A program made the translations under genes and the position numbers. A DNA stretch of 64,000 nt, from the NCBI GenBank assembly GCA_041652815.1, contig JBAZGN010000002.1, forward strand, positions 77,570 through 141,569, written 5' to 3'. Below the pieces are notes generated by a model. The model was not told the DNA's origin. It did not search any database and saw only the letters and a program-made list of their open reading frames with translations. The DNA comes from Candidatus Omnitrophota bacterium (GTDB lineage Bacteria; Omnitrophota; Gorgyraeia; Duberdicusellales; 4484-171). Positions 1 through 63,000 of this stretch are shown here, one piece after another. Position 1 is the stretch's first letter. Each line of letters opens with the position of its first letter.

Positions 1-2
1 TA

Positions 3-3000
3 AAAATAGAAGAAGTGTTTACTGGCATAGAGGTACCAACTTACCCCTCAACCTTACCATTTAGGGAATCGTTACATGCCATTCTCCTTTCTCGGTTTCT
101 ACGCTCAACTCGAACCTTAGCTCATCATTTAAGCGGACAGGAGCAAAAATATTTGCATGTACGCACATTTAATCCGGAAGGTTTAACCGGCTATCCAAAA
201 TTAAAGGATATTTTCGAGAAGGTGTCCTTATTTGTTTATTATGAGCAAGATGGCAATACCATACACAGCTGGATAATTATTGCTCCGGATTTTATCGCAG
301 CCGCCGGCGAGGATTTAACTCGCAGGATGCATTATGTATTCTCGGTTATACACAACGTAGAACAAAAAGTTGTTAGAGACGGAAAGCCTATAGCAGATTT
401 GGATTTCACGGCGATTGATAGAGAAGCGAACAAATTTGCAAATGAAAATATGCAACCGGGAAGGCCTATGGTAGTTAGCGGTTACATATCGAGTCCGGCG
501 GCAGAGGAATGGTTTATAAGAAATTCTTCTGACACTGTTTCTTCTCCTACGGAGGCAAGCAATCATGATAGACTTAAGAGATTAAAAAATTTCATAAATC
601 AAGGAAGTGGCTTTTGTGCTTATGAAAGGCAAGTTTTATTTAATTACTTTGAGGTTTTAAAGAAAACTTTACGGGGAGAGATTGTCTTACCACGCCAAAT
701 AGAAATTCATACAACCACTCGTTGCCAGTTGCGTTGCCGTTGGTGCATTGGAGAAAAGGAAAGGCTTGCCGTGTCACCAACCGATTTAGGCATGCAGACA
801 ATTTTTAAATTGTTGGATGAAATAAAAGCGTATAACGCGCGTCAAGGCGAAGATACTAAAGTTGCATTAGTTAGATTTTCCGGATATTGTGGCGAACCTT
901 TACTTAACCCCGCAACATTACCAGCTATGAGACGGGCTTTAGATTATGATTTGGAAGTTGGTTTAGTTACGAATGGGGTTTTGCTTAGCGAGCCTACTGT
1001 TCAAGGAGTGGTGGCACAAGCAAAGTATGTCCATGTAAGCTTAGACGTAGGGTCCGATAAAACCTATAAATTGCTGAAAGGCGGCGTACTTGGAGAGTAT
1101 GATCAAATTATAGCTAATATTAAACAAATAGCTATGCTTCGTAAAGACTCAGGAGTAAAGATTCAAGTTGGTTTTATTGTGCAGCCGGAAAATTATAAAG
1201 AGTTTCCGGCATTAGCTGATACGTTAAAGGGCATTGGAGCTAATTATATCCGTGTACGGGCTGCGATGCGTGAAAAAAAGGGACAATTAACTCCTGCGCA
1301 GTGGCATGAAGCGTATCAAATAATCCGAGATGTTAAGCAACGGTATACCGATGATACATTCCGAGTGATTGTGATGTATGACGAAAAAGAAGCACAAAAT
1401 TTACAAAGGCCAGACTATCGTCTTTGTTACGCCCATACGTTTTTGGGTGTTATCGCTCCTGATGGAGAGGTACCGCCGTGTTGTCACTTGACGTATAAAG
1501 GAGCAGTGAGTTTTGGCAATATAAGTGAAGCCTCTTTCGAACATATTTATAGAAGTTTTCGTAGGGCAGAGGTAATGCGGAATTTAGATCCAGCTGTTTC
1601 CTGCTCAATCTGCCCGCCCATGGCAGACAGAGTTAACCGATTCATGGAATTTTTGCAGGCAGAATACGTAAAAGACCCCAATTTTATAGAGTGGCTTGAA
1701 TTATTTGTCCGGGAACATAAAAAAGAAGAATCTTCAAGCCCGGTTTCTCCGGATATTAATTTTCAAAATGCTTTCACCGCGCAACACCTTCTTTTGGAAG
1801 AATTACAGCCAGAAGCTGTTATTTTAATGCGGGGTATGTTGGCGGAGGCAAGAGAGCGCTTAGAAAAGGAAGCGGCTTTTATCAATCGGAATAACATAAG
1901 TAATGCGCAACAAAGAATAGCAAGGCTTAATGCCATTATCGCCGATATTGGCAATTTAACTTTCCAAGATGTAGAAAATATACTTAAGATTTGTAAAAAG
2001 TATTTTACTCAGGCGACCGCTCTTAGTAAATCTCTCTGCCAAGAGTTAAGAATAGAACGGAATAAGCTTGCAGGGTTATATCGTATTATTCAATATCTAA
2101 CGGAAATTCAAAACTTATTTGAGCACTATTCTTGTCAGCGACGAAGAATAAGTTTCTTGCGTGAGCCGCTTGTTCCTGAAAAAATCAGGCGTCTTAGGCC
2201 TATTTTTGAAGGAGGAAAGTGTTTGCCTTCGCATGTTGAATTTCATTTAGCGTTGGGGTGCAATTTAAGATGCGAAGGTTGCCCTAATACCGAAAAAGAT
2301 GAAAATGGCAAAATGCGTTTCATCGGCTATTCTAAAATAGGCGATACACTGACCGAAGAAAGAATGAAAATGCTAATTGATATGTTTTTTAATTATGGTG
2401 TTCGCAGTTTCAGTTTTGCCGGTGGGGGTGAACCTTCACTTTCCCCGTTAACTTTTAAAGGCATTCAGTACGTCGGTCAAACTTATCCAGAAGTATTTCA
2501 AGCTATATATACTAACGGCATTTTTCCTAAAAAGTTAACGCCTTCTCATTGGGAGACATTAGCTAAATATTTGAATAAGATTAGGTTTAGCGTCGATGCA
2601 ACAAGCAGAGAAGATTGGTCAAAGTATAAGGGCCGGCCGGCGGAATGGTTTGATATGCTTTGGAGTAATATCCGTCAGCTTGTAGAAATAAGAAATACAA
2701 TAAAAACTAAGTTAAAAATCGGCGCTAGCTGTCTTGCTTCACGAGTAACGCTTGAAAATATTTCAAGATTTCTCGAACAGGCACAAGCAGCGGCAATTGA
2801 TTTTTGCGATATCAAAGAATTGGCTGTTTGCACCGAAGCTAAAGAAGAATTTAGGCCCGATAACAATAAGGTATTACAAGTAGTTAGGAATATATCAGAA
2901 AAGATTAGAGAAGGCGTTTACCAGCCGCTACATATCGTCTTTGACGATACTCTTTTAGCCCCTCTTTCTGAAATGCAGCCTCAAGATTTTCTTTCAGACA

Positions 3001-6000
3001 GATGTTGGTGGGCGATAACCGGCCGCCTATTGACAATAACTCCATATGGCGAAATGTTTCCTTGTCCCGATGCAGCTGATCCTGGTTCTCAGAAGGCAAT
3101 GGTGCATAACCCCGGCCTAGGGGTTTTGAGGCGCTTTGAAAGCATTGAATCATTACGGGAAGAATTCGAACGGCTTTGGTCAGAGGGGTGTGAAAAGCGG
3201 TTATTGATTTCAAGGGAAAACTGCCATTACTGCGTTCCGTCGCACTATAATTACAATTTGGCATTGGAAAAACTTTTTCAAGATTGGTATTTCGGTATAG
3301 AACCAGAAGACCAGCCATTTGCCGGCTTAGAAGATGAATATTTACGTTCACGCGGTAAGGGGCCGGCTCTCAAGGTTCAAGGTAGTTCTCCTTCTTCGTC
3401 TGTCGTTGTCGGTCACTCGATAAAAGGAACAGCCGGCCCCATTGAAATGGCTGTCCGAAGCATTCTGCATCCCGCCTCTTCTCCCGTAACAAAGGCCGGA
3501 TTTTTTGATATTGATGGAGTGTTATTTAGAAAATGTGACAAAGATAGATATGAAACATTAGGCCGGGATTTTGTTTCTCGCGGTATAGCTAAATTACTTA
3601 GCACCGGAAAGATTTGGGAGAGCGTTTTTGAAACACAAAAATATATGCAGATGATTTTAAGAGGAAGTATCGGCGAGCAAGAATTTATCAGTGCCGTAAA
3701 CGCGAGATTAAGAAAACGCGGCCTCAAAAGAGAGTATCAGACCGCCGAAGAACTTTGGCGAGTATTCTTTAGAATCTTAGAGCCTAATTTTAAAATAGTC
3801 AGGATTTTAAAAACTATGCAGGCTTTAAATATGCCTTGCGGAATAATTTCTGACCGCTTTTTGGGTGATGTTCCAGTTATGATGGAGGCTATTGATGATA
3901 CATTTGTTGGCTTATTTGATAGGGATTTAGTTTTCCATTCCTGCGAACATCGCTTTACTAAGCAAGATGGGGATTTGTTTACTATGGTTGTTGATGTTTT
4001 ACGAGGTAAGCATGGTTTAATTAGCCCTAGTGAGATATTCTTCGTGGACGATAATGAAGATATTCTTACAGTTGCTCGGCAGGTTGGTTTACAAACAGTC
4101 CATTACGTATTTGCTGATGCGGTTGCGCCTGAACTCGACTACCCGATTTTTAGAGAAATTCTTAATAGACTCGCTTCTTCTCCCGCTGACGCCACTTCAC
4201 CTAAACGAAAAATATTGCTTAGCACTGACTTAGGCTTTTTCCCGGATGATTATGTGGCACTGGCGTTACTGCTAAATACTCCTGGAATTGATTTAGCCGG
4301 CGTGTTTTTAAGAGGAACGAAAAAATTCCCAGCAGAACCAGAGCAAGCAGAAAGAATTTTAGCGCTAAGCGGCAGAGCATATATTCCTGTGTATTCTGGC
4401 GTAAAGAAAACTTCTGACTCCATAGCAGAAGCTATAACTAAGGCTAAAGGCAACATAGCAATATTATCTATTGGTTTGTTGACAATTCCCTATAAAGCTT
4501 TATCAAAAGTAATAGCGCAGGGAAATGAAAGATTTCTTAAGAATTTGCGCATTGTGATTATGGGCGGGTCATTTAATCCCTGTGAAGATATGGATGAATC
4601 TGGCTTGACCGAATATAATTTCCGCGGAGATTTAAAATCTACCCAAAAGCTATTTAATTTATTTGAAGCACACCGATTTGCCGATGTCAGGATTACGCCC
4701 TATGAAGTGCTTATGCTAATGAGTGTAAATGAACAGATTAAATTTTTAGCAGGCAAGAAAAATTCTGCGGGCGGAATAGTTGCCGGTAAAATCATTGCGG
4801 CTATTAAATATTTTCGCAGAATTAAAAAACTTTTACCCAAAACCCGTTATAATTTCTGTTTGTTTGACCCGGTAGCAGCAGAAGTTTTAGTTAATCCCGA
4901 TATGTTAGTTTGGCAGCCGGTTGAATTTGCAGAGCTGCCTGTTACAGAAGTGCTCGGAAAAACATTCTTTGGTTTTAAACCCAGCAAAAACAGAAATGTT
5001 TTATGCGCTCTCGATTTCGCATCTAAAGTTAAAGAGGGCGAATTCAGAAAGAAACTTGGCAGCCTTTTTGATGATTTAGCAACGAAAGAACAGATTTCTT
5101 CACCGATAGAAGATAATAGCGTCATTGCTTTACTGCAAGAAACAATGCAGGGGCAGGAAATTTCTGAAGAAGGAAAGAAAAAAATAAAGGAAACCGCCGA
5201 AAGCAAGCCCGAGCTTTTTGGAAGAGTGCTATCAGGAGAGCGACGTGATGGCAATTTTAGAAATGCCGTAGATGATGATGAGCAGATGAAAGCATACCGG
5301 GGCGAGATTGAAGGCAAAATAAGCGAGATTGCAGAAATTGGCCGAAGATTACAAGTAAGAGTAGATATCAGGGATTTAATTGAAGACGCCCTGCAGATGG
5401 TCTTTGCGCTGACTCCGGAATATTTCTTTAAGACATATTATTTGGGCAAGGACGCAGCTAAAGAGCATGGCGTGCTGCATGCCTTGGAGGACTTATATTA
5501 CGGTTTAAGGATTATCGAGAAAGATGAAGAATTAAGGAATATGGCTATTGATTATGAATGCCTGATTTATGCCTGCCTTTTACACGATAGCGCCGGGATT
5601 ATTTCTAGGGTTAACCACAGCACCACCTCGGGTTATTTCGCAAAAGCGTTCCTTGAAGCCATAGGCAAAGAAACATTAGCTGCCAAAACATGGAAAGTAG
5701 CGAATGCACATCACGGTATAGAGGTTAAACAGATATGGGGAGAGGCCGTATATGATAATTGCCCCGAAGCAAGGATTATTAAAGACGCTGATTCGCTTGC
5801 GAGCGGTTTAGACGTTGAACGGCTTTGCAAAATGGTTATTTTATGGAAACCGCAACCGGGTGAATATAAAAACTATATTTTTGACGAAGCATACGGCAAG
5901 AAAACAAGATTAGAGCATTGGAACGTAAGATTTCCGCGGAAAAACGGAATAGTGGTAGAGGCAGAAGAAGAAAAATGGGTAATTAGCAAAAACGACAGGG

Positions 6001-9000
6001 ATTTTATACAATTTTTGCTCGATAACATAGTTTTCAAAACTATGCCTATTTATTATATGACCAAAGGCGCAGCAAGAATTTTGCGTGAAAACGAAAAACA
6101 TAGCGCCTTAGGATTTATTTTGGAGAAAGTAGATGATTTGATTGGCGAGTGGGAAAAGAAATGGAAAATTAAATTTAGCTCCGAAGAAAGAGTTGAAATA
6201 AAGAAGATAATTTCCGATTTATATGAAGAGGCGTTAAGAATAGTATGCGAAGAAAAAAATCTTGACTATACGCAGTTAAGGAGAGAATTTCCTGATATCG
6301 GCCAACGGGCAGTAGGTATATTTAAAATGTGCGCTTCTTCTTCCATAAGCTCACCGTTTACCGGCACAGCAGTAGCGGCCTTGAGCGATGAAAAAGGGTT
6401 TGCGTCTTCGCCATTAGCGGGAAGTTCGAGCGACGCAGAGAAAAGAACGCGGAATTTGAAATTTGCGTTAGGTTTATTATGTAAAAGCGGCGATTGGCGC
6501 AAGGCGGTTGAAGTTATAAATGAAATTGGCGAACTCAAATCGCCCGTTGCAATCACAGAAATAATACGTATTCTTTACCGGGATGATTTAGAAATATTGC
6601 ATCAGGATGCTGTTGCGGCTCTTCACAAAATTGATGTTTCAAAGCTTTCCGCCAAACACTACCGTTTTATCGTCACATTAATTTCCGGATTGATACGCAA
6701 CAGAATTTCCGGCAGCAATTTCGTCGGCATAGACCCGCTTTCCAAAGATTTATTTGAATTATTATGCCATACCACTCGTTCATGGAGCGATATCGAAACT
6801 TTCAGTAATTGGATGCTTACGCGGATAAATATGGTTTCCTACTTTGCGGACGAATATTCACAATCGATGTACATTATGTATTATATGGTTGAAACAGCCA
6901 AAATGTTTGCTGAGCCGGCAGCCGTAGAACTGGTTGTTAAAATCAAAGATAAAGCAGTAAAGTTCAGAAGTTATTTATCTGCCACAAAAATTGTCCGCAA
7001 ACACCGGCTGATTGAAAAGTTAGACGGCCTTATTGATTATGCCGATAGAGTATTAACTTATTTAGAGGCTGTGCCGTTTAACCCGGATAAATTGCAACAG
7101 GTATCTTCGCCCATAGGCAGAAGAGAAGTAGAAAGAATAAGAGGGCTGATTGAAAGAGTTGATGCCCTTGCTGCAGAAGTGAATAAATTAGCATGGGATT
7201 TTTCTCCCGCCGGCAACGAGCACACAATGCTTTCTACGAGAGGTCAGCAATTAATGAGCTTTGGGGAGATAGTCAGGAGCTCGGACACTCTCGACGAAAA
7301 ATATTTTGACTTTTTTAACATTTGGGAAAATTTATTATCTTGTTGGATGAATTTCTTATCCAGGCGTGTACGTAACTCACACGAGGCAGCTTTTAAGAAA
7401 GCAGAAAAAATGCTTCGTTTGAAAATTATCCCGGGATTTGAAGAAGCAATCAAGATGTGGCTGTTTACGAGCGAAGATTATTTAGGCAGATTTTATTTGG
7501 ATTTAGCCATTGTTAGGTTGGAAGAAGCAGAACGTTGCATAGACGAGTCGCAAGGAAAAATTCTCCTGCACAGAGAAGCTATAAGCCGTAGATTCAGACG
7601 GCATCATCTAAGTAATTTAGGAAGCAGCAGATACGAATTGGCAAAATTTGATAATCGCGTTGCTGATTTAGAAAAAATTAAAGCCGAAATAATTAGCGTC
7701 AACGATGAATTAGAACGTTGTCGTTCTGCAGGGTTTCTCGAGAATTTACCTGTAATTATTTCTTCATATCGAAGAGTTAAAAGAATAGCCGGGTTAATTA
7801 ATAGTGTAACAGTAAACGCGTTTTTAAGGATATGTTTATTCGAAAGAGGAAGCCTTATTTCCAGGGCAGAAGCCGACTTGGATGCAATAATAAAAACCGC
7901 CGCTTCAACCTCCAGCCCCCTCATAACCGGCACTTTCCGCACCCAACTTGGCATATTATCCGAAGCAATTGTTATAGATAACGTATTAATAAATACTTTT
8001 TCTTCATCGCCGGTGAGGAATATTTCTAATGGCATCCCTCGTTCCATGAACGCTTTTTTAAAAGAAGCGTTTACGCGTTATGAAAACGAAGGCGCTGCAT
8101 GGGCGAATAACTTTCTTTATCAGAATCATGAAGCCGGAGTATTTGCTGACGGAAGGTCTGCGCGGTCATTTCTTGAAGCAGTAAAAGTTATTACTGCTGT
8201 TGGTGAGCCGGATATGAGAGCCGGTGCAAAATGGATACTTTCTTTAAAGAATTTGCCCGATATCTTAAGCATGCTTAAGCCGGGAGAGCAGGATTGGCTT
8301 AATTATGCCTTAGGCATCGCTTCTCGGCTTGAGCATAACCTTCAGCCATTAAATGTTTGCAAACATAATGGTGACCTGAATAGTGCTTTAAAAAATTGTT
8401 CCTTTCTCTCTGGCGATGAAGGAAAAGTGACGGTTTCAAAATCAGATCCTTTCCACGTTACCCTATGTTATAAGAAAATCCCTGATTTTAAAGGAAAACT
8501 GTATCTTAGGTTAAAGGCTGGTAATAATAAAGAAGAAATTTTGCTTTTTGAAAATGCCAAAAATTATTCAGCAAACAATTCAGAATGCTACATTTGGCAG
8601 ATTGCCCCTTCAGCTTACGATGGATTCCTGGAATTCGATTTCATAATGTTAGATGAATACGGGTCATTTTCTTTATTGATAGACCGCAGAAGATTTAATT
8701 ACATAAATAAGATATCTCCCTTAAGTATACCTATGTTGGGAGTAAATTATCAAGCCGCGGATAGATTAAAAGAAACAAATGTGGTTGCTTATGCGATGGA
8801 AGCTGCTCTTCTGATGCAAACCCTTTCTGGAACCATGGGAGGCGGTTTAGGAATTTTGATGGGAAGTTTTTTACGGGCTTTAAGGTATTCAGGCGCCAAT
8901 GTTTATTTTCCGCTTCTAAGATACGCCAAAGGGATTGAGCAACGCGTAGCAGACGGCAAGCCCCAGGTAGTAAAAGGCGTCAGTTTGGATTATTCGGTTT

Positions 9001-12000
9001 TGGATAATTATGAAGACGAGTTTGAGCGATGGGAGAAAATAAAAGAAGCGGGGATTACGGTAAAAGTAGAAAACAAAGAATACAAAACAAGAGTATCTTT
9101 AGTTCGATTAACGGTTAAGGTAGATAAAGGCACGCCCGATTCTTACATATTATTTATTGATATACCTGAAAATTCTGATATAGCCTCAAATCTTTATCCG
9201 GGGAAACCAACCTCAAAAGAGCGTTTTAGGCAAGCAGCCTATTATTCACGCGCTACATTGGAAGCATTAAAAACTTTAGGTATCAAGCCGGATATATTGC
9301 AAGTCCATGAGTCGTTTCCGGCAGTAGCACTGGTTCCCGATTTGTTTTCCAATGAACATTCGCCTTACGCAAATGATAACTATTTTGACGGCGCAAAAAG
9401 AAATATTTTAGGTTTTTGCCATAGTATCGCCGCCCAAACAATGCCATGGATATTCCCTGGCTATATGGAGCAGATATTGGGTTATTCTCTGCCGGAGGAG
9501 TTGCTTACTACGCGAAAAGCCGACAGTAAGACATACAGAGTTTATGACCCGTTTCACGCTTTAAGCGTGAAAGCAAAAGCTATCGGCACAGTCGGCTTGG
9601 AACACCTTAACGCCATGCAAAGGCTTTTTCCTATGTTTGCGGATAAATATTTTGCGATAGAAGACTCAATCTGGCCTTATTTCTGGATGTTACCTGAACA
9701 AATTGCCAATAAAGGGAGAGTTCTTAGTTTAGAAGATATCTGGCAGGCTAAAGAAAAGACTGAAGCCAGGATGATTGGTTATATAGAGGGCCTATGCGGA
9801 GTAAAGCTCATAGCCGGAAGGCCTACGATAGTTGAAGCTCGGAGAATAGCTGATTTTAAAGACACCCTATTTTTTACCGGCCTTCCGGGAATAATTCTTT
9901 CCGGACAGTTATTATCAGGTATTTATTATCTAACCGCTGCAGTTGAAGAAGGTGGGCTTGGATTTAATCTTGTTTGCGCCGGGAAAGCTCACGAAGACGA
10001 TGAATTAGGGCAAGCCTGGGAAGGAAAACTAAGAGAATTTTCCGATGATCCGCGGCTTAAAGGAACATATGTGTATTTACCCTGGACGACCAACATTTCG
10101 AGGCCCATTATTCAGGGGGCTAAAGTATGTTTGCAAACATCAGTTCCTCCATACGAAGCCGCAGGGATGAAAGATAAAAAAGACATGCTTTGTTATAATG
10201 TGGTAGTTTCAAGTTATACCGGAGGGCCGATACAGCAGATTACCAATGTTTTATACAATAAAGCTGTTGAATATTGGAGAATCTTGAAAGGAAATTCATT
10301 GACAAAGATTATAAGTTTTCTGCTTTGGTTTTTTGGAATAGACCGAGAAAAATATCATCTTGGCAACGGATATCTATTTGAGCCTTTTAGCCAAGCTAAG
10401 CTGCAGGAGTGTATGGAAGACTTATCTGCGCGTTTTTACGCTTATATATACTATAAACAGGAAATAGCCCCGGAACAGGTAAAATCTCCCAATGAACATT
10501 GGTTAAAATTAACTCGCCGCTATATGAAAGAGGATCCAAGTGGGATATTGCAGATTATGCAAAATACTGCAAGGATGCTGCCAGTCTTTGATTCTCGTAC
10601 AGCCGCTTTAAAATTTGCAGCCATCTGGGCTTTTATGCAGGGAGAGCGTTTGGATTATTCGGGTTATGATGAATTCTTGAGAAAAGCTTTAGCAGATTTT
10701 GAAGAAAGGTTATCGCCGAGCTTTAAAGGAGAATTTGCCGCTAATGGTACGGCAAGTTCTTCCGCGCTTGAGGAAACTCGCCATGCAAGGCGCATTGATA
10801 AAATTAAAAATTTTGGCAGGAATATATCTTCCCCAATTAAGGCAGGGTTTTTTGACATTGACGGGGTGCTTTTAAGAAGCCCGCCAAAAGAAGAAAGATA
10901 TACAAGATTAGCCTTATCTTTACAAAAACTTGGGCTAAAAAGCGTTAGCGTTGAAGAACTTCACGAAGCTATTTTTGCCAATGAGGATAATGGTCAACGT
11001 AAGTTAAAGCTTTTGTGCGGGGATATAACCGAAGCTGAATTTATTGCCCAGATAAATCATAACCTAAGGAATCTTGGCTTAAGAACAGATTTAAGCCCCA
11101 AAGAGTTTTACGGGATGTTTTTCAGCGATAGAATGCCGAATTGGCAATTACTCGAACTTTTACTAATAATGAAGGCGTTAGAAATGCCAAGAGGCATTAT
11201 TTCTGACCGCCTTCCGCAAGACGCAGCAATAATGATGGGAAAAGTAAAAGGAGGTTTCCCGAAATTATTTAAAAACCACCGCCTTATTTTCCATTCATAC
11301 GAACATCATCACACAAAACACGAGGTTGAGTTTTTCAATCTGGCCGCCAAAGTATTATATGAACAATTTGGCATTACGCCACAAGAAACTTTCTTTGTTG
11401 ACGATAAGAAATCTATTATTGAAATAGCAAAACAAGCCGGTTTTCAAGCCATTCATTATGCTTTTAACGATAAGATTCCTCCGGAACTCATTCACCCTAT
11501 TTTTAAAGAAATTCTTGGTATGGCTGTTTCCAGCCCCATTTCAAAAGCAAATGTTCAGGTTGAGTTTGTTCCCGCAGATAAAAAATATGCTGGCATACAT
11601 TCTTTATATCAAGTTTTTGCTGTATCCCTTGAAGGGGGTTATGGAGTTACTGTTCGTTGCGGTATACCACATCCTTTTCTCCCGGGTGAATTTCAACCAT
11701 CCTGCGGTGAGATTAGATTTATAAAGGTAAGCAAAGAAGATTTTCCTACAGCAAAGCCCCAGGCACGTATCGACGCCGAAACTAGGGCAATTGAGGTAGA
11801 CCGCACTTCTGATTTGGGTAACATTGCCAGAAGAGGCGCTGCCACGGTTGTTGTTTCAGACGGCACAAGGCCTAAAACCGATATTTTAGAAGAATGGGCT
11901 TCTGCTTTAGCAAAGAAATCACTATTAGGCTGGGAATATACGCCGATAATAGGTTCCGGGATTGAGGAAGAAGATATGTGGACTATTGCAAACAGCGCTT

Positions 12001-51000: not shown

Positions 51001-54000
51001 TTAAAAAATCAGCAGTTCCTTTTAGGGAAGGAGTTAGTGTAAAATTTTCCATAAAGGCAAGCAGCCACGATATAGCTTCAAGCCCTGCTTCCATAAAAGT
51101 TTATTTGGTTTATCCTTATGGCGATACAGTTTCAATTAGTAAAACCCCATCCCCTGTTCTTTCTAAAAGCGAATACCCAAATGGTTACAGCCTTACCGTT
51201 TGGACATTCAATCATTTAATAGAGCCGGGCCTTTGGTGGGATAATGAGCGGTTTGAAAAAATAGTAAGGGCGGTTAAGCAAAATCAACCGGACATTTTAT
51301 TACTACAGGAGACTACCGTAAGATGGGGCGGGAATACAATCTTTAATAGCGGTTTTGAAATTGCCCGTGCATTACGGGCGGATAATTGTCAACCTGGTTG
51401 GCAGGAGCATCTCAAAGATACAGATTGGGGAAGAACGGGTAATGCTATTATCTGGAGTGATAAACTTGTCAGGATGGATGACAATGAAAAATATTATTGT
51501 GACCTTACTTCCCGCAAGACCGGCGAGAATTTTCTGTTGGGAGTCCGCCTGGCAGTAAAAGCTACCGGTCACGAATTTTATGTTTTAGCAACCCATCTTT
51601 GCCCTTTTTCAAGCCAGGAAAGGGGATATCAACTTGAACAGTTGATTTCATATATCGAAAATAATCTTAAAGCAGGAGTCACTATTATCCTCGGCGGCGA
51701 TTTCAATACTGCGAGCGAAGTAGAAACAAAGGCTATGGTAGAAAGATTAAGCGCCAAAGGTTTTAGAGATGCCGAGCAGGGTTTATATGCCGGTAGATAT
51801 CAATATACCTGGGAGCCTACTAACCGTTACGTATCGGGGTACGATAAAGCCCATTTTGGCCCTAGGGGCTGTGACCGGATTTTTGTCCGTGGACCGCCGG
51901 AAGTTAAAAGTTTTGAAATAGGTTTTAGCAGCGAAGAAACAGCTCTTTCTGACCATAGTGTTCCCGTAGCAACATTGAATATTCCTTTATTTGACCCGCC
52001 TCAAATACCTTGGCTGCTCTGCGCAGGAGATTCGATATTACATGGCCAAAAGTATCCACACGGCTATGTTAATTGCCGGACGCCCTTGGAGCATAATTTG
52101 CGCAAAGCAGAAAGCCCCTATGTCTTTAGAGGCCCTTTTCATGATCCTTACGTTGTCAAAGACCAACAAGCTAACGCTCATCTGGCTTGGAGCGGTATCT
52201 ATACTCATAATGTATATGAAAACCACCCCTTGCTTCCTTATGGGTTGTACGAGCTTATAGAAAGATATCTTGCCGTATCTATGCCGCTTCGTAACCACCC
52301 TCGTTCGGCAGTTTTTATCCATATCGGCACCAATGACGTATCTGATTTAAATGTTTCTTTAGACGAATCAGTTGCTTACGTTAAGAAGATGATTGATTTC
52401 ATCGATAGCTATGACCCTACCATCAGCGTATATGTTGCCTTGATTATCCCTAGAAACGGCGATAACTCAAGAACCGAAGAATATAACCGAAAACTTAAGA
52501 AGATGCTTTTAGCCTACAAAAGGGGAAAAACCAATCTTTATATTATTGATATCTATGGCGCATTTTTGAGTAACCCGGACTGGAGAGGGAATTATTTTTA
52601 TCCTTGGGACCACATACATCCTAATGGCGCAGGATATAAAGCCATTGCCAGAGCCGCTTCCGAGGTAATAGTTAAGTCATCAAGCCCTATCGAAGACAAT
52701 GTCCAGCTACGGCAGGGTGGGGTGCGATTTAAAGATTTTTCCGCTTTTTCGCAAAATGAAGCGATTAGCTTATTCCCTTTAACGCAAATTAAAGCAGTGT
52801 TTGATTTTCTATCGAACGATTTGTATGTGGCAAAACATCTCGGCGCTAGAATATCTTTCTTAACTGACGGCGATTGTCGTTGTTTCGCAATTCCCTTAAC
52901 GCAAGATGGTTTTGTTACCCTAGAACTCCTTAATGGGGTGAATTGCTTAGCCAAATTAGAGGCGGCTATCGATTCCAATAAAGGCAATATTTATTTTAAG
53001 CCTTGGTTAAGTGAAACACCAAACCTGCGTCATAAAGGGGTAGGTTCGGCATGGGCCAGAGAAATTATTTTGCCTTATTTCAGCAGGCAAGGCGCGAAAA
53101 AAGCAATCATTTATTGGCAATGCTCACATTCTGAATATGAACATCTATTGGGAAAGCTCGTCGGCGCTGTAAGCTATGTAACTTCAACTCAAGGCCGAAC
53201 TGCCTATATGGTCGGTGAAATTGACTTGAAAGATTATAGTTCATCTCCCTCTATGCTTTTGTTGGAATGGTCATTCAGCGGAGAAAAAGATAGAAAAAAA
53301 GCAGCAGAGATGGCCACATATTTTGGTAATGAGCTAAGGAGGAAGTTAAAAGAGAAAAATTTTGATTACCTTACTGCCGGGGTAGGAAACGCCTGTTGCG
53401 AAATGGCTTTGAATATGATGGTGCATGCCGGAGGCGGAAGCATCGAAATATTCTACGATGAGGATTTAGAGGGCGTACAACATCTCAAGGCAATAGGCGT
53501 AGACAATGGCCCGGGGATGGACAATCCGAATGAGTTATTGCAGGAAAGCATAAAAATACACAGAGCATGCCGCGCCGGCACAGGCGATGGATATGCCGGT
53601 ATAGGCATAAGAGACATTGTGATATATCCAAATGGGGTTATTGTTAATACAAAAATCGAAACGAAACCGGTAGCTGAAAAGTGGATTAAGATAGGCGCAA
53701 GCTTAAGGTGGCCGGTTGGAATTAACCGGATAAATATGGTTGAATTACATCAAGAGGAAGAAAGGATAGAATCAGGTCTCGCATTAAGATGCGTTGGTAA
53801 TCCCGAAATCGAGAGAGGGACCGAAATTATTCTAACCTGGAAACAAATGCCGGATGAGGAAATGTTTGAGCTCGAGGAAGAATTACCTGTCGAGGAAAGG
53901 ATTAGCTCGCCGTTAAACCGTAATACTACTTACATTCAACAACCGATAGATAGTAATGTAAACTTCAGCGCCTTTGATATCAAGGAATTAGCCGCGATAA

Positions 54001-57000
54001 ACCCTGATGGCCTATATCTTAATGTGTCGTCAAGTTGTATCTCGGACGCGACTATACCGGAAAAAATAGAGCTAGAAATTCCTGTTGAATGGTATTCGGA
54101 TGATTCCGTGGTATCAATAAAATTGGCTACCCCCCTGGAAGGGGACCCTATAATCAGATATGCACAGGCATCAATTACTCCTCTTGAATATCAAGTTGAT
54201 TGCCTTTTAGAAATCGTTGAGCATATTGAGCCTAATGCTGTGATGCTTAATTTAGGCTGCGGTGTAAACCTTATACGAAACAGATGGAAGCTACGTGTTT
54301 TAGTATATAATTTCGATTATCAATATTCAGCAGTATGCCCCGAATATGAAGCGGCACGTATCGGTGCGAATTACAGAAAATATGATTGCAGTGAATTATC
54401 TTCTTGGGTGGAAAGCTTTAAAGTCGGTAATCCCCATTGCTTAATACAATTCATTCTTCTTGCCAAAGATATGTGTTTTTGGTTTGGCCAGTATTTTTCG
54501 GACAAACGGTCATTGTACCAGGCCAGGCATATTCACGGGATTTTGAGAAACGCCTGGAAAGCGCTTGAAGGGCCTGCTGCCTATATAATCGTAACTTCTC
54601 CGGGTTGCGATAAGTATTTGCAATATCTTTCAGCTTTTTCTCCCGGATTGACGAAAATTATTGTTGTCGGTGCAGCGCTTGGAGATTTCAAAAAAGCAAA
54701 AGCTGTATTATTTCAAAAAGAGAGCACCAGCTCACCTCTTTTTGCCAAAACTTCTCAGGCGAGCCAGATGGTTTTACGCTGCGTGGACACTACCAAAGAG
54801 CCTTGTTGTATCAACCATCAGGCAGTCAGGGATATCGTTGAGTTATGCGAGAAAGATAATAGTTTTCTGGGAATATTTGCTGATGTTATCGTTAAATATT
54901 TAAGTGACGATAATTTATTATTGAGAAATGTACTCTATGAAATCGTTGAAATGTTAAATGGCCATAGTTGTGCCAGGAAGTTGCCTACGCTTTTCGCTGA
55001 GTTATTAGCCAGAAGGCTTCCGGGGGATGAATTGGTAAAATTATTAGCTAAGTGTTCTCATGTAAACGCAGAAATGGTGCCGGACGACAATAAGACCACA
55101 TTCCCGCCATATGTTAAAAGCGGATATGTGCAAGGCGATATTGATTTAAGCCATGAAGAGCCGGGTTTAATTTTAAAATTATATAGGCATGCACGATATT
55201 ACTACATAGAATATCAGGGTAAAAAGGCAGAATATAAAGGAAAAATAATTGGCTTTGTACAAACCTACCGTCCCAGCGTAGAAGACATAATATTTTTAGG
55301 CATTCGTGTTTTTGAGAGAGTTGAACCGGGAATAGGCACTACAGTAATGCGTTGGGCCGCAGAATGGGCAGGCAGTAATGGTAATGTTGTTTTTCAGTAT
55401 CCTGTTGATGAAAACTATATCAGATTTATGCTGCACTGTGAGCGCGAAGGAATATTAGATGCTATAGAAATTGCACTGCTTCCTATTGCGGAAATACCGT
55501 TTATACCCCATTCTGCTTTATGCCGCTTGCCGCAAAAATATACACCGGACGAACAATCTTTCTGGCAGAGAGTAAATAATATTGAACATGTTGCGGCGTT
55601 AAGGCCTAAATTATCTCCCGGCACAAATATTTTTGTCCGGGGAAAAGTAACCTCAAAAAATACCAGTTCAACCGAGGCCAGCTCGCCGCTTACTGACGTA
55701 AATGCATATCTGACAAGTTACCTTGCAAAATATGTAACCAGAAGCAGTAAATTTGGAGAAAAGGAATTGAAGCTGCAAGAGAAATACGATAGGCAACTAA
55801 CTTTGAATTTGCCAAAATTTGATGAGTCTGATTTAGCTGTCGCCATAGAACATATTATGGATAATGCCGTGCATTTCTCACCGCAAGGAGGAGTGATAAC
55901 CGTAATGACAAGCTATGAAGTTAAAAATCGAAAAAGAAAAGCGGTAATCGCGATATCCGATAACGGTAAAGGTATTGATGTAGCGCAAATTGTAGAACGT
56001 GCGCTCGCAAGAGGGGTTATCTCCAAAGAAAAATTAAGAAAAATGACATATAGACAAATATTCCAATTGGTTTTTTTACCCTTTATTACCACCAAACCAC
56101 AAGGCTTTGGAGGCTGTGGCCTAGTTTGGGCGAAGATAGCTATAGAAAGGAATAAAGGAGCTATTAAAATACATTCAAAATGGGGTAGCGGCACCACAGT
56201 ATTTATTACCTTATCTATTATGCACATCGCTTCTAGCCCCACCCTCGAAGAAAGTGACGAACAAATAAAAGCACGTATTATGGCTGTTATAGAGGAGTAT
56301 AACTTTTGTCGCCGCCGAGCGCGTGAAATTTGGTTGGAGTTCGAACCGAATTTTGATTTACCGCTTGAAATTTCCGGAATGCTTGGAGTAGCTACTGGCC
56401 ATATTGATAGAATTCCTCCGGAATTTCCTACAGCATTAACAATGTTGAGAAAAGGCATATCTCGATATGAGCGATTTATGGATGAGCTTAGAGGGCGTAA
56501 TACAGAAGTAACTCTTGCCAAAGCCGAAGCATTAAATAGCGCATTAATTCTTCTTGATTACGCAAAATCTAAGTTAGAATCAGCTGTCTCTATGCTTGAA
56601 GCGCATCTCAGCACGAATGGTACCGAAAATACTTCAAGTGCTGTTTCGTATATAGAAGGGAGAGAATCATTCGAATATAAATCGTCCATCAGACAAAATA
56701 ATAATTCTCGGTTGCGGCAGAGTTCAAAAGGGCGGTTTGCCTCTCCGTGGCTGGTGGGGGCCGCCCTCTCTGCCGTAACCGTTTCTTCGCCAATACAGAA
56801 TGGTAATGGAGATAATTCAGAGAAACAGAACAGTGAGTTTACTACCGCAACAATGCGGTTACGACGCCTCAAGAGCGAAGCGGAAATTATCCAAAGCTTA
56901 AAGTCGCTTCTGGCGCAACTGCATTTGTTAATGCCCAACGATAATGAAAATGGCAACGGGAATATATATCTGCCAATGTTAGCCAACCAAATTGATTCAT

Positions 57001-60000
57001 TAAATGGTTGGGGAGGAATTTTGCAAAGAGTAAGAAATGATTTCCGGGGCGAGAGAGATGTGCAATCTTTAGCAAATATCTGTATGCTGGAAAAAGCTTT
57101 AGGCGTTTCTATCGACGATCAGGCAGCTTCAGAAAGCACGCCACCAGAGGCAAAAGAACAGGCATATTTAGCTTTTGTTGCGAATGCCCGCGCTGAAAGA
57201 ATACTACGTGAAACAATGCGTACAAAAATGGGGCTAAGTAGGCAACAGCTAAGACATTCACGCAAGATGGCAGCAAGGCGCGAAAAGGCAAGAATTGCCG
57301 AGCAAAAAGCTCAGCAAGCCGCAAAGCCAAGGCATAGCCCAAGAGCGTTAGCAAAAGAAACTCGAGAAGATGCGAAGCAACAAGAAAAGTTAGCTCAACA
57401 AAAAGAAAAAACGCACAACAAAGCATTAAAAAGACAAAATAAATACTATAGGGCTCACCAGAGAGAACTCCGGCGTAAACGCCGTAAGGTCTGGCTGTGG
57501 GCTAAAAAAGCTTCTCGTTCCCGGAAAACAAATACAATTATACTTAGCGATATAGAAAAGTTGGTAGCAAAAAAACATTTCAGCCCCACCTATTATTCTC
57601 TTCTTACTATTGCTAGAGAATTAAATTTAAGCCCGCCGCAGGTGTGGCTTATCGCAAAAAAAGTTTTGTTAAAATATTGGATTTCTGCTTTAGAACGGCC
57701 CAATCCTAAATATTCAATCGAAGAACTCGAAACTGCTGTAAATCCGGTTGCAACGCTTTCTCTAATTGTAAATACACCTTTTGTGCGCCAGTTACTTTGG
57801 AGAAACAATCAGCTGGAATTGCCTGTTATTCCTTTAGATTTTAATCCAGCAACGCCAGAAGAGTTTTTAACGAGGCTGCAAGCGCTTTTAAATATTCTGG
57901 AGATAATGGAAGCAACTTACCAAGAAAGTTCAATGTTTGATGAACTTTTCTTCGTTACAGAAACGCTGCAGCATTTGGCTTTAGCCGGAGAAATAAAAGC
58001 TGTTGTGCGGTATAATTTAGTGCGCTTGCGCCATACCAGTGCCTATAAAGCGCAGCCGGATAAAGCTTATCTAGAACGGCATATCTCTCGAGCAGATTTA
58101 GCTCATGAAATAGGAACTAATTCGCGCACAATTGCCTGGGTAGAAAAAGGCCAAGAGCGCGTTCCTTACTCTATGGAACTTTTAGGCAAAATTATACGTT
58201 TATTGGCATTCTCCGGCAAATTCGAATTAGATTACGCAAATACTTCATTGCCCGGCAAGGCTCAAGCTGTTGTAGGCTTACTTTGTGATAACCGAAACTT
58301 AGATTTGTCTTATAACATAGTTCTTGCTGCCAGAACAGTTAATACCGGGCTGGCTTTGCGCGCGGAAAATATTCTGATTTCTTCGCAGAAAATAAATACT
58401 AATTTTGTTGCAGCCTCTGAGAAAAGTAAACAAAAAACCTATGCCGCAAAAACTGAGCTGCTTCTTCCGCAAAGAGGGTACCCTTGGGAGTTAAGAGGCC
58501 AGGCTGCCGCTATTTTCCGATTAAATTTAAGGCTCGTATTAGAACAAGGGACTACCGTAACCAGAGCGCAGGGAAAAGGGGAGAAAAGTAATTCCAAAAA
58601 AGAAGCGCTTATGTCTTATAGAGATATAGCGCAAAGCATACACCGGCCGGTTTCTTTTGTGCTGGCAGTTGCACAAAATCGCCATGACGAAGGAAAGCTC
58701 TGGATTTTTAATGTGGATTCTATTTTGTCGTATCTTGCCTCATCACGGGTTATTTTATATGCTATCAGCCAAGACCCGCATAAAAGTTTCGAGGATGTAT
58801 TAAGGCTAATGTTTAATGTCGATAGTATGGCAAGAATGAGAGGTATTATCGAACAGGTAGAGGCGATTAATGGAAATAGGGCTGCAACTATTACTAACAT
58901 TTCACCCGAGGAAGCAGTTTTATCAGGAATGTATAAGCAAGGAAAAGAAAAGCGGTTTGCAGGCGCGGCCTTAGAGCGTTTAGGGGGAAATTTAAAAACT
59001 ACAATGCAGGCTGTTTCTATTTGCGGGAAACCTCTTACTTATAAACGCTTGGCAGATTTGTTGCACATATCTCTTAGGCAGATTAAAGGGATTGCTGCAG
59101 CCGAAAGGCCTATTACTTATCCTGCGGCATACAGTATTATCTGGACGTTTTCTGGATTACGGTATCAGGAAGGAAAAGACAGGGAAAATCTTTTTAAAGA
59201 AACAACGGATTTACTATTTTCATCCTCTTCGCCTATTCAGCCAAAGCGTAATAGTCAAGATAAAGGTAAAATAATAAGGCCGCGCAGCTCTCAACAAGTA
59301 GAAAAAATGATTGAGACGGCAATGGGACTGGCTCCTTTGCCGCGTATTTCAATGCTGTGGCATGCTAATTTGTTCCATAATTCCGAATATGATTGGAGAA
59401 ACAGTTTCATTATGACAAAAATCGCAAAAGCGTACGTTAAGCTTGATAATTATAGCAGAGCAGAAGCATGGTTATTGCGTGCCGTAAAAGCGGATATGCA
59501 CCTTTTAGCTCTCAGCCGCAGATACCCTTACGATCGTTTCCGTGAATATGCGTTTCACAGCCAGGCAGTAGGTTATTGTATGCTTTCCCAGTTTTATTTA
59601 GATTGTGCAAACAAAGGAATAGATTCGAATCGTATGTTTGAAATGGCACAAATGGCAATTATGCGCGCAGTTAAAATTGATTCTTATCGCAATAATCATG
59701 ATCTTAGGGTGGCAGAACAGCGAGATAAAGTTTTCGCAATTACAGGAAAAGCTTCATCTCCTGCGCCCAATGAAAGTGATGTTCCGGTAAATAAGCATAT
59801 CTCTATTCCTTATACCGTAAAGCGCGGCGATATTTTTCATTCAGGAAGAAAAATTGAACTGATGATTTTTGAAATTAATCGTGGATTTATTGTATTTGAA
59901 ATATGCAGGCCTAACCAGGATTTTATTGAAGGAAAAGGCCCGAGAGGCCCGCCAGCTTACCATGACAGAAGAACTGTAACTGCCAACAATCGCACCGTAC

Positions 60001-63000
60001 AAATTATTCCCGGATTTAATATACGGGTCGAGAAAATAAAAAATAGCAAAGCTTATATCCATCTTATCTCTCCCGCCAACCGTCAATTTGAGGAAGGACA
60101 AGTTCCCGAACGAGGCTCAAGCCCTGTAAAAGCTGATACAACAAAAAATAAACGAACCGCTGAAACATATCGAAGGCAGGCAAAAGTTTTTAAAACCGTA
60201 CAACGGCTTGCAAAGAGAAGGCATAACACCGCCAATTGTAATATAACAGTTTCCGAAGTGGCCGCAGAATTAAAAGATACATTAAGCCGTAGGGCTGTCG
60301 GTAAGGACTTGTTAAGGCTTGAGGAATTTCATTTATTGACAGGTAACCGCAGAAACAGAAAAAATATTTGGACATTTTGGTTGGCAAAAGATATTGGTAC
60401 CTTTACGCGTCAGGATTTAGATTGGCTTACTCAATATATTGAACGTGTTAACAATAATACGCGATACGTATCAAAGCTTTTCGAAGCAGCTATTGGCCAG
60501 TACCCGAGGGATATACGGCTTGGAGCGCTACATAGACAATTTACCGAACTTTTGCAATCTGATGATGCAGCGGCCTTAGCATTTATCCGAGACGCAGCAA
60601 AATTTTTGGATTACCGTGGCCCATACGAAAAACAAATTCAGCTTGCCGGCATGTTGTTTTTTTCGCAATATGTCCCCTCCGGCTATTTATTCATACCCCA
60701 ATCAGTGAAGCACAAAAGAAAGAATCTAAAAAAAGAACGGCTTTTAACAGGAGAGGAATTATATTTACAGCGGATAGGCGAGTACCCACTTTTATCTGCT
60801 CTCGCAGAGGTGGTTTTATGTATAAGGGCGCGATACGGCGATAAAGAAGCTACGCAAAGAGTGTGGGAGTCAAACCTGCGGCTTGTAGTAAGCATTGCAA
60901 AAAAGTATGCAAAGAGATATAGATTTGCCCTCCTGGATTTAGCGGACGTAGGAAATATCGGGCTACGCAACGCAATACCTAAATTTGAACCGCAATTAGG
61001 TTTTAAATTCAGTACCTATGCCACCTGGTGGATACGCCAGGCAATACTGAGAGAAATTGAAATGCAGCGAACGCAGATTCGTATCGCAGGGAAACAGCGG
61101 GATACAGATGAAGAATTCAGGAGACTTTGCCTTACGAAATTTGGCATTGACCCGGCAAGCCCTCAGGCATCACCTGAAGTGTCCCCTGTGCATATCGCTG
61201 AAATTACCGGCGTTCCCGTTGAAGAAGTTGAAGATTACCGCCGGCGCAGCTTGCCAATGCCGTCAATTGATCAAGCGTTTTCCGGAAAGGATAAAGATGA
61301 ACCGGAAGCAACATTTAAAGGTAATTTAGGAGAGGAAGACGAGGCCATTGATATTATGACTATCCGTAGAGTGATAGAAGAAATTATTGCAAGGACTGAT
61401 TGGGCGCTTACGCGAAAGTGGAGGAAAAGCCCCAATCGCGGAAGAGATATGTTAATTTGGAAGTTACGCGTAGCAGATGATTTATTGGGCGCAGTGGGTG
61501 CGGAAGAATCTTTGACATTAGAAAATACCGCAAAGCGTTTATATGAGCTCGGCTATACTGGGGAATCAAAAGATAAGCCATTAACAAGAGAAAGAATACG
61601 ACAAATAGAGATAAAGATAAGACGTGTGCTTGAGCCAATTGCGGTTGACGTTTTAAAAGATGCCGGCATGGGCGTAGATTTCCTTAGTCTTTACGAAAGC
61701 TTCTCGGAAAAATCTCAGGGTGGAATTAATGAAACTGCCGCCAGCTCGCCGGCACCGCAAACCGATAATTCCCATATTCCTTATCCGAGAAAAGGGTCAT
61801 CTTTAGAGCGCCAGCGTAGGCTGCAAGATTTTATTAAAGAGCATACATTTACCCATAGCCGGCTTGTTAAGTACGGCATGCATCCTACACGTTTACCTTT
61901 CGAGATATTAATCAAAGCTTTAAACGAACTTGAACTGCGCTTCGGCGGTCCCGGAAGTTTGAGAGGTAAACGGCTTCTTGATTTAGGAACTGGTGACCTG
62001 CGAGTGGGGCTGGCAGCTGCCTATCTTTATGGTATGTATGTAACTGCGGTAGAAATTGATGAGGATGTGCACAAAAAAGCATTTGAAGTTTATAGGAAGG
62101 CACAGGCACAAGGTTTTACTGAAAGACTTACCTTTATAGATAGACCCCAAAATGCCTTTGGCCTTCGATGGGAAAAGAATGGGGAGAATTTCGACATTGT
62201 ATTTTTCTTTTATACTGAGCCCGCTCAAGACGTTGCGATATGGAGGAAAACTCTTAAAGCTTGCACGAATACTTTGAAACCAAGCGCTGTCTTGGCTATT
62301 GTGGCTAATGAAGTTAATAAAAGCCAAGGGCAAAAATATAATGTTGACGAGCTTAAGGCGCTTTTTATAAATTCACCGCAGGAGATGTATATTGGCAGCC
62401 ACAATGATCTCGGTAATCTTTATGTTTTTTATCCCGATAATTCCGCAAGCTCGTCGCTTAATAATGGCAAAAGTTCCAGCATCGCCACGCAGAATCAGAA
62501 TAATGCTTTGGTAAGCTCAAGCCCCCTCTCGCAAAATTTATGGCCGGCTGTAATAAAACGCATTACAAACTCTCTTTATTATGACAAATTGGTTTCTGTC
62601 GGTATGGCTATACCAGTGTTATCGGCTGATGACACTTTATATTCCCGTTTAAGCCATATTTGTAGAGTCGAAACAGCTGCAAAGCTCTGGGCGCAAAAAT
62701 GGCGTAAAGGCTTATGCAATCGCGTTAAGCTGCAGCCGGATATAATTACATTTTTCGCTATTTGCCAACAGCTTGGCGCTGCTGCTTTTGCGAATTATAC
62801 TGGAGAGGTTTTAAAACTTAACGGAAATAATTCCGGAGAGCTTCATTTTGCACAGGCAATTGTCCATGATTTATGTCATTCCAAGAGAGCAACACTGAAT
62901 TCAATACAGGGCTATTTACAGGAAATCCAGCAACTTGCTTTGGAGAATATTCCTAATTTATCTTTTGAAGCCAAATTCGTCGTAGCCAGCAATGTGCTTA

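Follow-up and report, generated by a model that had tools for sequence, protein, structure and literature searches.

A recurrent Ser-Ser-Pro mark at the junctions between whole-protein units of a giant Omnitrophota gene

The open reading frame and its Ser-Ser-Pro marks

This study focused on a stretch of 64,000 bases (the window) from contig JBAZGN010000002.1 of a Candidatus Omnitrophota bacterium (assembly GCA_041652815.1), and on the tripeptide Ser-Ser-Pro (SSP), which recurs along the one long open reading frame (ORF) that fills it. Frame +3 is free of stops across all 64,000 bases (21,332 codons counted from base 3, open at both ends), while the remaining five frames contain 768-1859 stops each, and no other ORF longer than 202 amino acids (aa) was found in the 64-kb window. 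GC content is even (0.40-0.43), and the GC skew is positive throughout. The window is an internal stretch of one giant gene, which belongs to the Omnitrophota "multi-enzyme" type and whose product exceeds 21,332 aa.

Giant Omnitrophota genes of up to 147,155 codons, the longest known, have been reported. Giants of the "multi-enzyme metabolic cluster" kind were described from Candidatus Omnitrophota by Nielsen & Lui (2026, bioRxiv 10.64898/2026.06.07.730766), and 'Archaeovorin'-like giants by West-Roberts et al. (2023, bioRxiv 10.1101/2023.11.21.568195). The ORF in the window lies above the size of at least 10,000 aa by which the Omnitrophota giant multi-enzyme proteins are recognised, and it resembles them in running without a stop for tens of kb, in its diverse tiling by Pfam families, and in sharing signature families with them. 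About 25 Pfam families tile the chain, none of them dominating, and GT5, HATPase_c, methyltransferase, HAD, HD, and radical SAM are all present. The list comprises radical SAM/SPASM, two HAD hydrolases, a nucleoside hydrolase, HD, a GT5 starch synthase, a Glu/Leu dehydrogenase, cupin, B12-radical SAM, CBM48, GH77, MutS domain V, SEC-C, a protein kinase, methyltransferases, an endonuclease/exonuclease/phosphatase, a GDSL lipase, HATPase_c, and sigma-70 regions 1.2 and 2. Of the set formed by an N-terminal anchor or signal, a C39 or S8 peptidase and SecA-like domains, the window, which excludes both gene termini, holds a SEC-C motif alone. Most of the described giants have many transmembrane segments (about one helix per 370 residues in those published), whereas the window has almost none. 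The sole near-transmembrane hydrophobic segment in the 21,332 aa lies at 44085-44141 (aa 14695-14713) and is borderline, scoring 1.91 in a 19-residue Kyte-Doolittle window.

SSP occurs 59 times in frame +3, compared to 3.66 copies expected from composition, and in 1000 residue shuffles the mean was 3.6, with a standard deviation of 2.0 and a maximum of 11. No other tripeptide in the frame comes near this degree of over-representation (16-fold, z = 29), and the tripeptides ranked next (SSS, VSS, ASS, GSS, SPV, SPA, SPL) are flanks of it. A first-pass annotation, made by a model from the letters alone, had drawn attention to this excess and had put the expectation at about 3-5 copies, which both composition and shuffling bear out; its count by eye of roughly 50 was too low. 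All eleven of the examples it quoted are present, a few bases from where it placed them, with SSP codons that start at 1734, 4176, 10827, 21147/21159, 34764, 39432, 43032, 49791, 53904, 55680, and 62517. The span that it drew from position 1731 does contain sites, but it begins too far downstream, since two further sites (489, 540) lie before it. Coordinates of all the marks are given in Table 1. Enrichment of AVS, VSS, and SSS was also considered as a set of separate signals and rejected, as most of it comes from the residues flanking SSP or from degenerate copies no more than 30 aa away from a mark.

The constraint extends one residue to either side of the tripeptide, making the motif longer than had first been stated. 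Position -1 is G, A, S, V, I or T at every one of the 59 sites (background 0.378, P about 1e-25), and position +1 is V, A, L, I, T or S at 56, with F, P or C at the other three. The full motif, [GASVIT]SSP[VALITS], is found 56 times against an expectation of 0.57. No SSP that violates the flank rule occurs, where about three would be expected by chance, and this is a weak hint that the motif is avoided inside the units. The information is confined to five positions: no conservation was found around SSP beyond -1 to +1, by 3-6 residues to either side the composition no longer differs from background, and there is no low-complexity stretch. Flexible inter-domain linkers are of variable length, low in complexity and weakly conserved, whereas the marks have a fixed tripeptide and restricted flanks.

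Each of the six Ser and four Pro codons appears at the marks, the third positions hold about 0.2 bit of information, no nucleotide conservation was found at the marks beyond the constrained codon positions, and the antisense frame contains 30 SSP against 30.1 expected. The constraint therefore acts on the peptide and not on the DNA, as had been argued earlier from the varied Ser codons. There is a mild codon bias within the mark, the second Ser being TCG in 19 of 59 (10% of Ser codons in the background) and the Pro being CCC in 18 of 59 (background 18%), with AGY Ser codons under-used at the two Ser positions (25% and 20% vs 39%).

The positions of the marks relative to protein domains were equally distinctive. 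The 23 Pfam envelopes take up 17% of the residues without enclosing a single one of the 59 marks (P about 1.6e-5), and many marks lie 2-12 residues off an envelope edge; the proposal that SSP sits at domain boundaries thus withstood the check. The clearest cases come from stand-alone homologues of individual units (designated by u numbers, Table 1). The interval of 855 aa between the marks at 36867 and 39432 shows 44-51% identity from end to end with stand-alone 4-alpha-glucanotransferases of family GH77 (838-859 aa), whose Met1 aligns directly after SSP and whose C-termini fall 0-3 residues short of the next SSP. Stand-alone HAD proteins (202-233 aa) likewise have their Met1 directly after SSP, as where MTKIFLFDIDH aligns with the 11 residues that follow the mark, and they end at the unit end. 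Stand-alone nucleoside hydrolases start 8-10 residues past the mark, the N-terminal side alone being confirmed in this case. Since the homologues of all three families begin at a mark or no more than 10 residues from it, and those of GH77 and HAD also end at the next one, SSP occupies the place where separate genes would have a stop, a spacer and a start.

Paralogues within the chain show the same limits. The two HAD units, u05 and u13, run from SSP to SSP and share 41% identity over their full length, and further pairs are u42/u44 and u39/u43, the paralogues being 24-41% identical. Intervals of at least 60 aa number 49, and their lengths (median 307 aa, quartiles 216 and 550) are like those of ordinary bacterial proteins. 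The chain is made up of about 50 complete, ordinary-sized proteins plus nine short spacers, and the marks are the junctions between these whole-protein units, kept by selection on the peptide. The punctuating role proposed for SSP in the first-pass annotation holds, with modules that are entire proteins, the marks coinciding with the termini of their stand-alone homologues. Polyproteins carry tandem complete proteins in one ORF, as do the GH77 and HAD units, with homologues running from mark to mark, and a short conserved junction motif, as represented here by the 56 full motifs and by the absence of all 59 SSP from Pfam envelopes.

Nine junctions have doubled or multiple marks around spacers of 4-33 aa, as at 489-548, 3384-3485, 6348-6413, 7911-8012, 21147-21167, 29394-29501, and 41055-41252, the last of these with four marks within 66 aa. 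Degenerate copies (SSA, SSV, SSS-V) occur within 30 aa of some marks. An AlphaFold model of the GH77 unit with both of its junctions, made from an alignment of eight sequences, was too poor to use (mean pLDDT 48.9), and sequence searches of the PDB with the nucleoside-hydrolase and kinase units gave weak partial matches that were uninformative on termini.

Related giants and their own marks

No close orthologue was found in a word-based protein search with aa 1128-2368, or when genome and metagenome contigs were scanned for the GH77 unit. In sensitive searches, the nearest relatives of u40, u45, u56, and the HAD and HD units were proteins from metagenome-assembled genomes (MAGs) of Omnitrophota/Omnitrophica, at 30-45% identity, and for several units the nearest relatives were fragments of giant proteins from Omnitrophota MAGs. 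Of about 35 long proteins or loci related to the window, none showed an excess of SSP. The order of the units also differed. Homologues of u45 and u56 are adjacent in the giant P0075 (aa 2417-2702), but about 3,100 aa apart in the window (49797-50348 for u45, and 59760-60122 on the u56 side), while in P0076 (aa 17-273) the C-terminal (GDSL) part of u47 stands next to u40. As unit order and neighbours differ in related giants, the SSP-delimited unit is also a unit of evolutionary shuffling.

Three independent protein clusters, represented by P0032, P0052, and P0030, have a regularly spaced mark of a different sequence, R-S-E-[A/M/V/T/I/L]-R (RSExR; counts in Table 1), the enrichment of which is confined to the reading frame of the gene itself. 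In P0032, every Pfam domain lies between consecutive RSExR marks; for example, an AA_kinase domain at 475-739 (profile positions 5-233 of 234) is placed between marks at 451 and 763. The homologues of the HD unit in P0032 and P0030 begin right past an RSExR mark. The codons of RSExR (CGC TCC GAG) are more biased than those of SSP. Both RSExR-type giants with a visible end, those of loci L002 and L003, finish in ...F-A-[V/R]-A-A followed by a stop, and the N-terminus of P0052 is a hydrophobic anchor.

A third sequence, [FLY]-D-N-G-G, occurs six times in the 3,018 aa of L007 (L007:2-9055, JAQUOR010000063.1, the Omnitrophota MAG Ca. Omnitrophota STD1_205), where about 0.03 would be expected, or about 200-fold over composition. 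These marks also lie between domains: past GDE_C, some 20 aa ahead of the u45 homologue, and to either side of a methyltransferase. The L007 mark ends in Gly-Gly, recalling the double-glycine sites of C39 peptidases.

D-[LP]-H-R-A-K, which may be a fourth punctuation mark, is present four times in P0077 (aa 2027, 3231, 3578, and 4290), with two copies at the starts of paralogous repeats and two in unrelated contexts, and is also found in L008 and L006. Other candidates in the relatives were rejected: VRQAA in L010 belongs to HEAT repeats, HEA in P0077 lies inside paralogous repeats, and FSN, SGL, and AKD were not convincing.

Possible roles of the marks

Cleavage of giants of this kind has been suspected but not located (10.1101/2023.11.21.568195, PMC11573180). 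In the former study, the giants were not divided for structure prediction since the cleavage points were unknown, and the latter named missing protease motifs as an obstacle. No mention of a junction motif was found in the two giant-protein papers cited above or in a survey of huge proteins, and literature searches on an Omnitrophota polyprotein or cleavage site, and on RSEMR, returned nothing relevant. Giant genes were already known; the new part is the junction marks, for which no published description was found.

The explanation we favour, with belief and doubt evenly balanced, is that SSP may be the recognition site of a dedicated processing endopeptidase, and the gene a bacterial polyprotein. 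That balance concerns the cleavage step, which we infer, and the junction structure itself is counted as established. A sequence-specific endopeptidase would cut the nascent or finished chain at SSP into individual enzymes, and SSP would be a lineage-specific cutting code, the marks of other lineages co-evolving with proteases of their own. With tens of thousands of codons, slow translation and ribosome drop-off would be expected, and cutting would make incomplete products useful. More tentatively, some Omnitrophota giants could be chromosomal polyproteins with lineage codes x-S-S-P-x, R-S-E-x-R, and [FLY]-D-N-G-G, each with a co-evolving protease.

Several lines of evidence point in this direction. 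Because unrelated marks occupy the same positions in different giants, and one of them has no Ser, a specific recogniser is favoured over a generic hinge or a Ser modification, and cutting sites that co-evolve with a protease would be expected to show such a pattern. A protease site is preferred to a linker since the motif is fixed, short, restricted in its flanks, and without a low-complexity tract, and it is further supported by units that have native-like termini and essentially no linker. Some enzymes of the cargo belong to families that normally work as free oligomers, and cleavage is favoured also because such enzymes, and a sigma-70-like unit, are hard to picture in a multi-megadalton chain.

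A number of observations weigh against a processing site. No peptidase Pfam domain was detected in the units of the window, even when the E-value threshold was relaxed to 0.05-0.1 for most of them taken singly, a result that covers the window alone, the gene running beyond both ends and many units having no annotation. No known protease specificity matching x-S-S-P-x was identified, and Pro beside the scissile bond is unfavourable for many endopeptidases. The junction between the endonuclease/exonuclease/phosphatase and GDSL domains of u47 has no SSP, which makes this unit either a true two-domain protein or one that has lost its mark. Most of the distant relatives examined have no exact repeated mark, and giants of this class can thus do without punctuation. 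Lastly, sequence by itself can prove none of the three functions (protease site, modification site or hinge) that the first-pass annotation had offered unranked; the marks of the relatives supply the ranking given here. An SSE lies near the domain boundary of u47 (aa 17309).

Type I signal peptidases follow a (-3,-1) rule, with a small or aliphatic residue at -3, a small one at -1 and no Pro at +1, and canonical LepB is blocked by Pro at +1. With a hypothetical cut after the second Ser of the mark, G/A/S/V/I/T at -3 and S at -1 would match this rule, while Pro would stand at +1 and no hydrophobic segment precedes the mark.

The main competitor, which we regard as somewhat unlikely, is an intact chain in which SSP is a selected structural element (a rigid Pro kink, an insulator or a co-translational folding pause) between units arranged like beads on a string. 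The marks do stand exactly between units, Ser and Pro are typical linker residues, the nine short spacers of 4-33 aa are linker-like, no protease domain was found in the window, and earlier papers picture the giants as intact, membrane-anchored assemblies. Ser/Gly/Pro-rich linkers likewise lie between folded domains and are rich in Ser and Pro, but they vary in length and sequence, whereas the SSP tripeptide is invariant and its flanks are restricted at all 59 sites, an exactness that a hinge does not need. Nor is there any low-complexity or disorder-type composition, homologue termini abut SSP, R-S-E-x-R and [FLY]-D-N-G-G are not hinge-like, and it would be hard to explain how sigma-factor or oligomer-forming units work within a chain. 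Modification or docking, with the central Ser phosphorylated or O-glycosylated, or the motif bound unit by unit by a chaperone, translocase or scaffold, is quite unlikely: it would leave unexplained why the motif is restricted to junctions and absent from unit interiors, and the [FLY]-D-N-G-G of L007 contains neither Ser nor Thr. What speaks for it is the strict, short motif with its Ser-Pro, the Ser/Thr kinase embedded in the chain (S-P being a proline-directed site), and the central Ser of RSExR in the relatives. O-glycosylation in the periplasm is unlikely given the cytoplasmic-type enzymes and the one borderline hydrophobic segment.

If SSP were an evolutionary scar, it would be the footprint of in-frame gene fusion, by recombination or insertion, with no present function. 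The mark does replace stop, spacer, and start exactly, and the TCG bias at the second Ser (19/59 vs 10%) would fit, yet Ser is encoded by TCN as well as by AGY and Pro by every one of its codons, with third positions near background. A neutral 9-nt scar would also decay in the protein, whereas all 59 keep S-S-P and obey the flank rules between units that have diverged strongly (paralogues 24-41% identical), making this origin very unlikely. Extremely unlikely is a signal acting at the level of RNA or translation (internal ribosome entry, re-initiation, RNase sites or 2A-like skipping), which would likewise yield separate units, with no need of a protease, and for which the terminal Pro, as in 2A, might be cited. 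Nucleotides outside the constrained codon positions show no conservation, Shine-Dalgarno-like sequences accompany 9 of 59 sites (7.3 ± 2.5 at random codons), and ATG, GTG or TTG in the five codons past the mark is if anything rarer than at random, at 7 vs 12.2 ± 3.1. Skipping by 2A depends on some 18 conserved aa upstream of the site, with NPG↓P at their end, and the SSP marks have no such peptide. To our knowledge, 2A skipping is confined to eukaryotic ribosomes.

A processed polyprotein would have partial counterparts in known systems. Picornavirus 3C cuts at Q↓G and the coronavirus Mpro at LQ↓S/A/G, and viral polyproteins are like the window in their concatenated proteins, their short, strict junction motif, the presence of some spacers, and a motif that varies between lineages. 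They differ in that the window is part of a chromosome-type gene of a cell, is about ten times longer, and encodes metabolic and regulatory proteins of a housekeeping-like kind. In polyproteins of the MARTX/gingipain type, an internal cysteine protease releases the effector or adhesin modules, and modules are exchanged between relatives. These are, like the window, bacterial single-chain arrays with module shuffling, but they are 10-fold smaller, are secreted virulence factors, and have loose sites, P1 being Leu or Arg/Lys. The domain searches of the window turned up neither a CPD nor a gingipain-like domain.

Whatever its function, the five-residue mark provides a rule for parsing giants into units for annotation and structure prediction. 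It defines exact peptides for proteome searches, as junction-spanning peptides or neo-termini, offers a handle on the processing enzyme through co-variation of mark type and protease, and makes the open question, one chain or many pieces, directly testable by experiment. If cleavage does occur, then a bacterium would produce unrelated enzymes, grouped much as in an operon, from one translation unit, and dozens of enzyme and regulator genes, including one for a sigma factor, would have swapped their stop and start codons for a post-translational peptide code. Such an organisation of expression would be one not described before in cellular organisms at this scale.

Features of individual units

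Table 1. Features of the window and RSE counts in related giants. SSP marks are 9 nt each, all on the + strand; aa are numbered in frame +3.
Feature	Coordinates	Strand	Remarks
Giant ORF, internal part	1..64000	+	frame +3, no stop, both ends open
u02, radical SAM + SPASM, 398 aa	546..1739	+	between SSP at 540 and 1734
u05, HAD hydrolase, 233 aa	3483..4181	+	homologue Met right after SSP, end = unit end
u06, inosine-uridine nucleoside hydrolase, 307 aa	4182..5102	+	Pfam profile position 1 is 9 aa past SSP
u07, HD-domain protein, 417 aa	5103..6353	+	P0032/P0030 homologues start just past their RSExR marks
u13, second HAD hydrolase, 234 aa	10833..11534	+	u05 paralogue, same SSP limits
u22, B12-binding + radical SAM, 465 aa	23238..24632	+	
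u30, GH77 4-alpha-glucanotransferase, 855 aa	36873..39437	+	stand-alone homologues mark to mark
u41, Ser/Thr protein kinase, 360 aa	45795..46874	+	Pfam envelope 10 aa past SSP to 25 aa before next
u45, unnamed family, 184 aa	49797..50348	+	common to Omnitrophota giants P0075, P0076, P0077, L004-L011
u47, endonuclease/exonuclease/phosphatase + GDSL lipase, 534 aa	51084..52685	+	no SSP between domains
u52, HATPase_c, 184 aa	55686..56237	+	envelope end 6 aa before SSP at 56232
u57, sigma-70-like (regions 1.2 and 2), 542 aa	60123..61748	+	
u58, class I methyltransferase, 258 aa	61749..62522	+	
SSP mark	489..497	+	aa 163-165
SSP mark	540..548	+	aa 180-182
SSP mark	1734..1742	+	aa 578-580
SSP mark	3384..3392	+	aa 1128-1130
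SSP mark	3477..3485	+	aa 1159-1161
SSP mark	4176..4184	+	aa 1392-1394
SSP mark	5097..5105	+	aa 1699-1701
SSP mark	6348..6356	+	aa 2116-2118
SSP mark	6405..6413	+	aa 2135-2137
SSP mark	7104..7112	+	aa 2368-2370
SSP mark	7911..7919	+	aa 2637-2639
SSP mark	8004..8012	+	aa 2668-2670
SSP mark	10827..10835	+	aa 3609-3611
SSP mark	11529..11537	+	aa 3843-3845
SSP mark	15297..15305	+	aa 5099-5101
SSP mark	17652..17660	+	aa 5884-5886
SSP mark	18957..18965	+	aa 6319-6321
SSP mark	19962..19970	+	aa 6654-6656
SSP mark	20553..20561	+	aa 6851-6853
SSP mark	21147..21155	+	aa 7049-7051
SSP mark	21159..21167	+	aa 7053-7055
SSP mark	23232..23240	+	aa 7744-7746
SSP mark	24627..24635	+	aa 8209-8211
SSP mark	26217..26225	+	aa 8739-8741
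SSP mark	29394..29402	+	aa 9798-9800
SSP mark	29493..29501	+	aa 9831-9833
SSP mark	32625..32633	+	aa 10875-10877
SSP mark	34764..34772	+	aa 11588-11590
SSP mark	35034..35042	+	aa 11678-11680
SSP mark	36867..36875	+	aa 12289-12291
SSP mark	39432..39440	+	aa 13144-13146
SSP mark	40155..40163	+	aa 13385-13387
SSP mark	40758..40766	+	aa 13586-13588
SSP mark	41055..41063	+	aa 13685-13687
SSP mark	41109..41117	+	aa 13703-13705
SSP mark	41199..41207	+	aa 13733-13735
SSP mark	41244..41252	+	aa 13748-13750
SSP mark	43032..43040	+	aa 14344-14346
SSP mark	43680..43688	+	aa 14560-14562
SSP mark	45360..45368	+	aa 15120-15122
SSP mark	45789..45797	+	aa 15263-15265
SSP mark	46869..46877	+	aa 15623-15625
SSP mark	47706..47714	+	aa 15902-15904
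SSP mark	48969..48977	+	aa 16323-16325
SSP mark	49791..49799	+	aa 16597-16599
SSP mark	50343..50351	+	aa 16781-16783
SSP mark	51078..51086	+	aa 17026-17028
SSP mark	52680..52688	+	aa 17560-17562
SSP mark	53241..53249	+	aa 17747-17749
SSP mark	53904..53912	+	aa 17968-17970
SSP mark	54729..54737	+	aa 18243-18245
SSP mark	55680..55688	+	aa 18560-18562
SSP mark	56232..56240	+	aa 18744-18746
SSP mark	56784..56792	+	aa 18928-18930
SSP mark	59226..59234	+	aa 19742-19744
SSP mark	59754..59762	+	aa 19918-19920
SSP mark	60117..60125	+	aa 20039-20041
SSP mark	61743..61751	+	aa 20581-20583
SSP mark	62517..62525	+	aa 20839-20841
P0032, MFA7255641.1, 7,560 aa	L003:20-22702, GCA_041674705.1 JBAYVF010000019.1		RSE 26 vs 2.9 expected
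P0052, 3,763 aa	L002:10001-21292, GCA_003140935.1 PLLJ01000037.1		RSE 14 vs 1.4 expected
P0030, 3,425 aa			RSE 10 vs 1.2 expected

Stand-alone Desulfobacterales enzymes, from Desulfonema magnum and bacterium HSG2, share 50% identity with the GH77 unit, which exceeds the identity of every Omnitrophota match obtained with the other units. This closeness to Desulfobacterales suggests that a whole gene was acquired horizontally and recruited into the giant ORF. The gene neighbourhood of the free-standing Desulfonema GH77 has nothing in common with the window.

The family of u45 has a signature, H-E-x-A-A-A-[IV]-T-A...I-R-P-T-S-H-E-T-N, that is conserved in three relatives. In the window copy, W-L replaces H-E and P replaces the second H, and with these signature residues replaced this u45 may be inactive. 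The sigma-70-like u57 has as its neighbours in the chain a unit of 121 aa and a methyltransferase.

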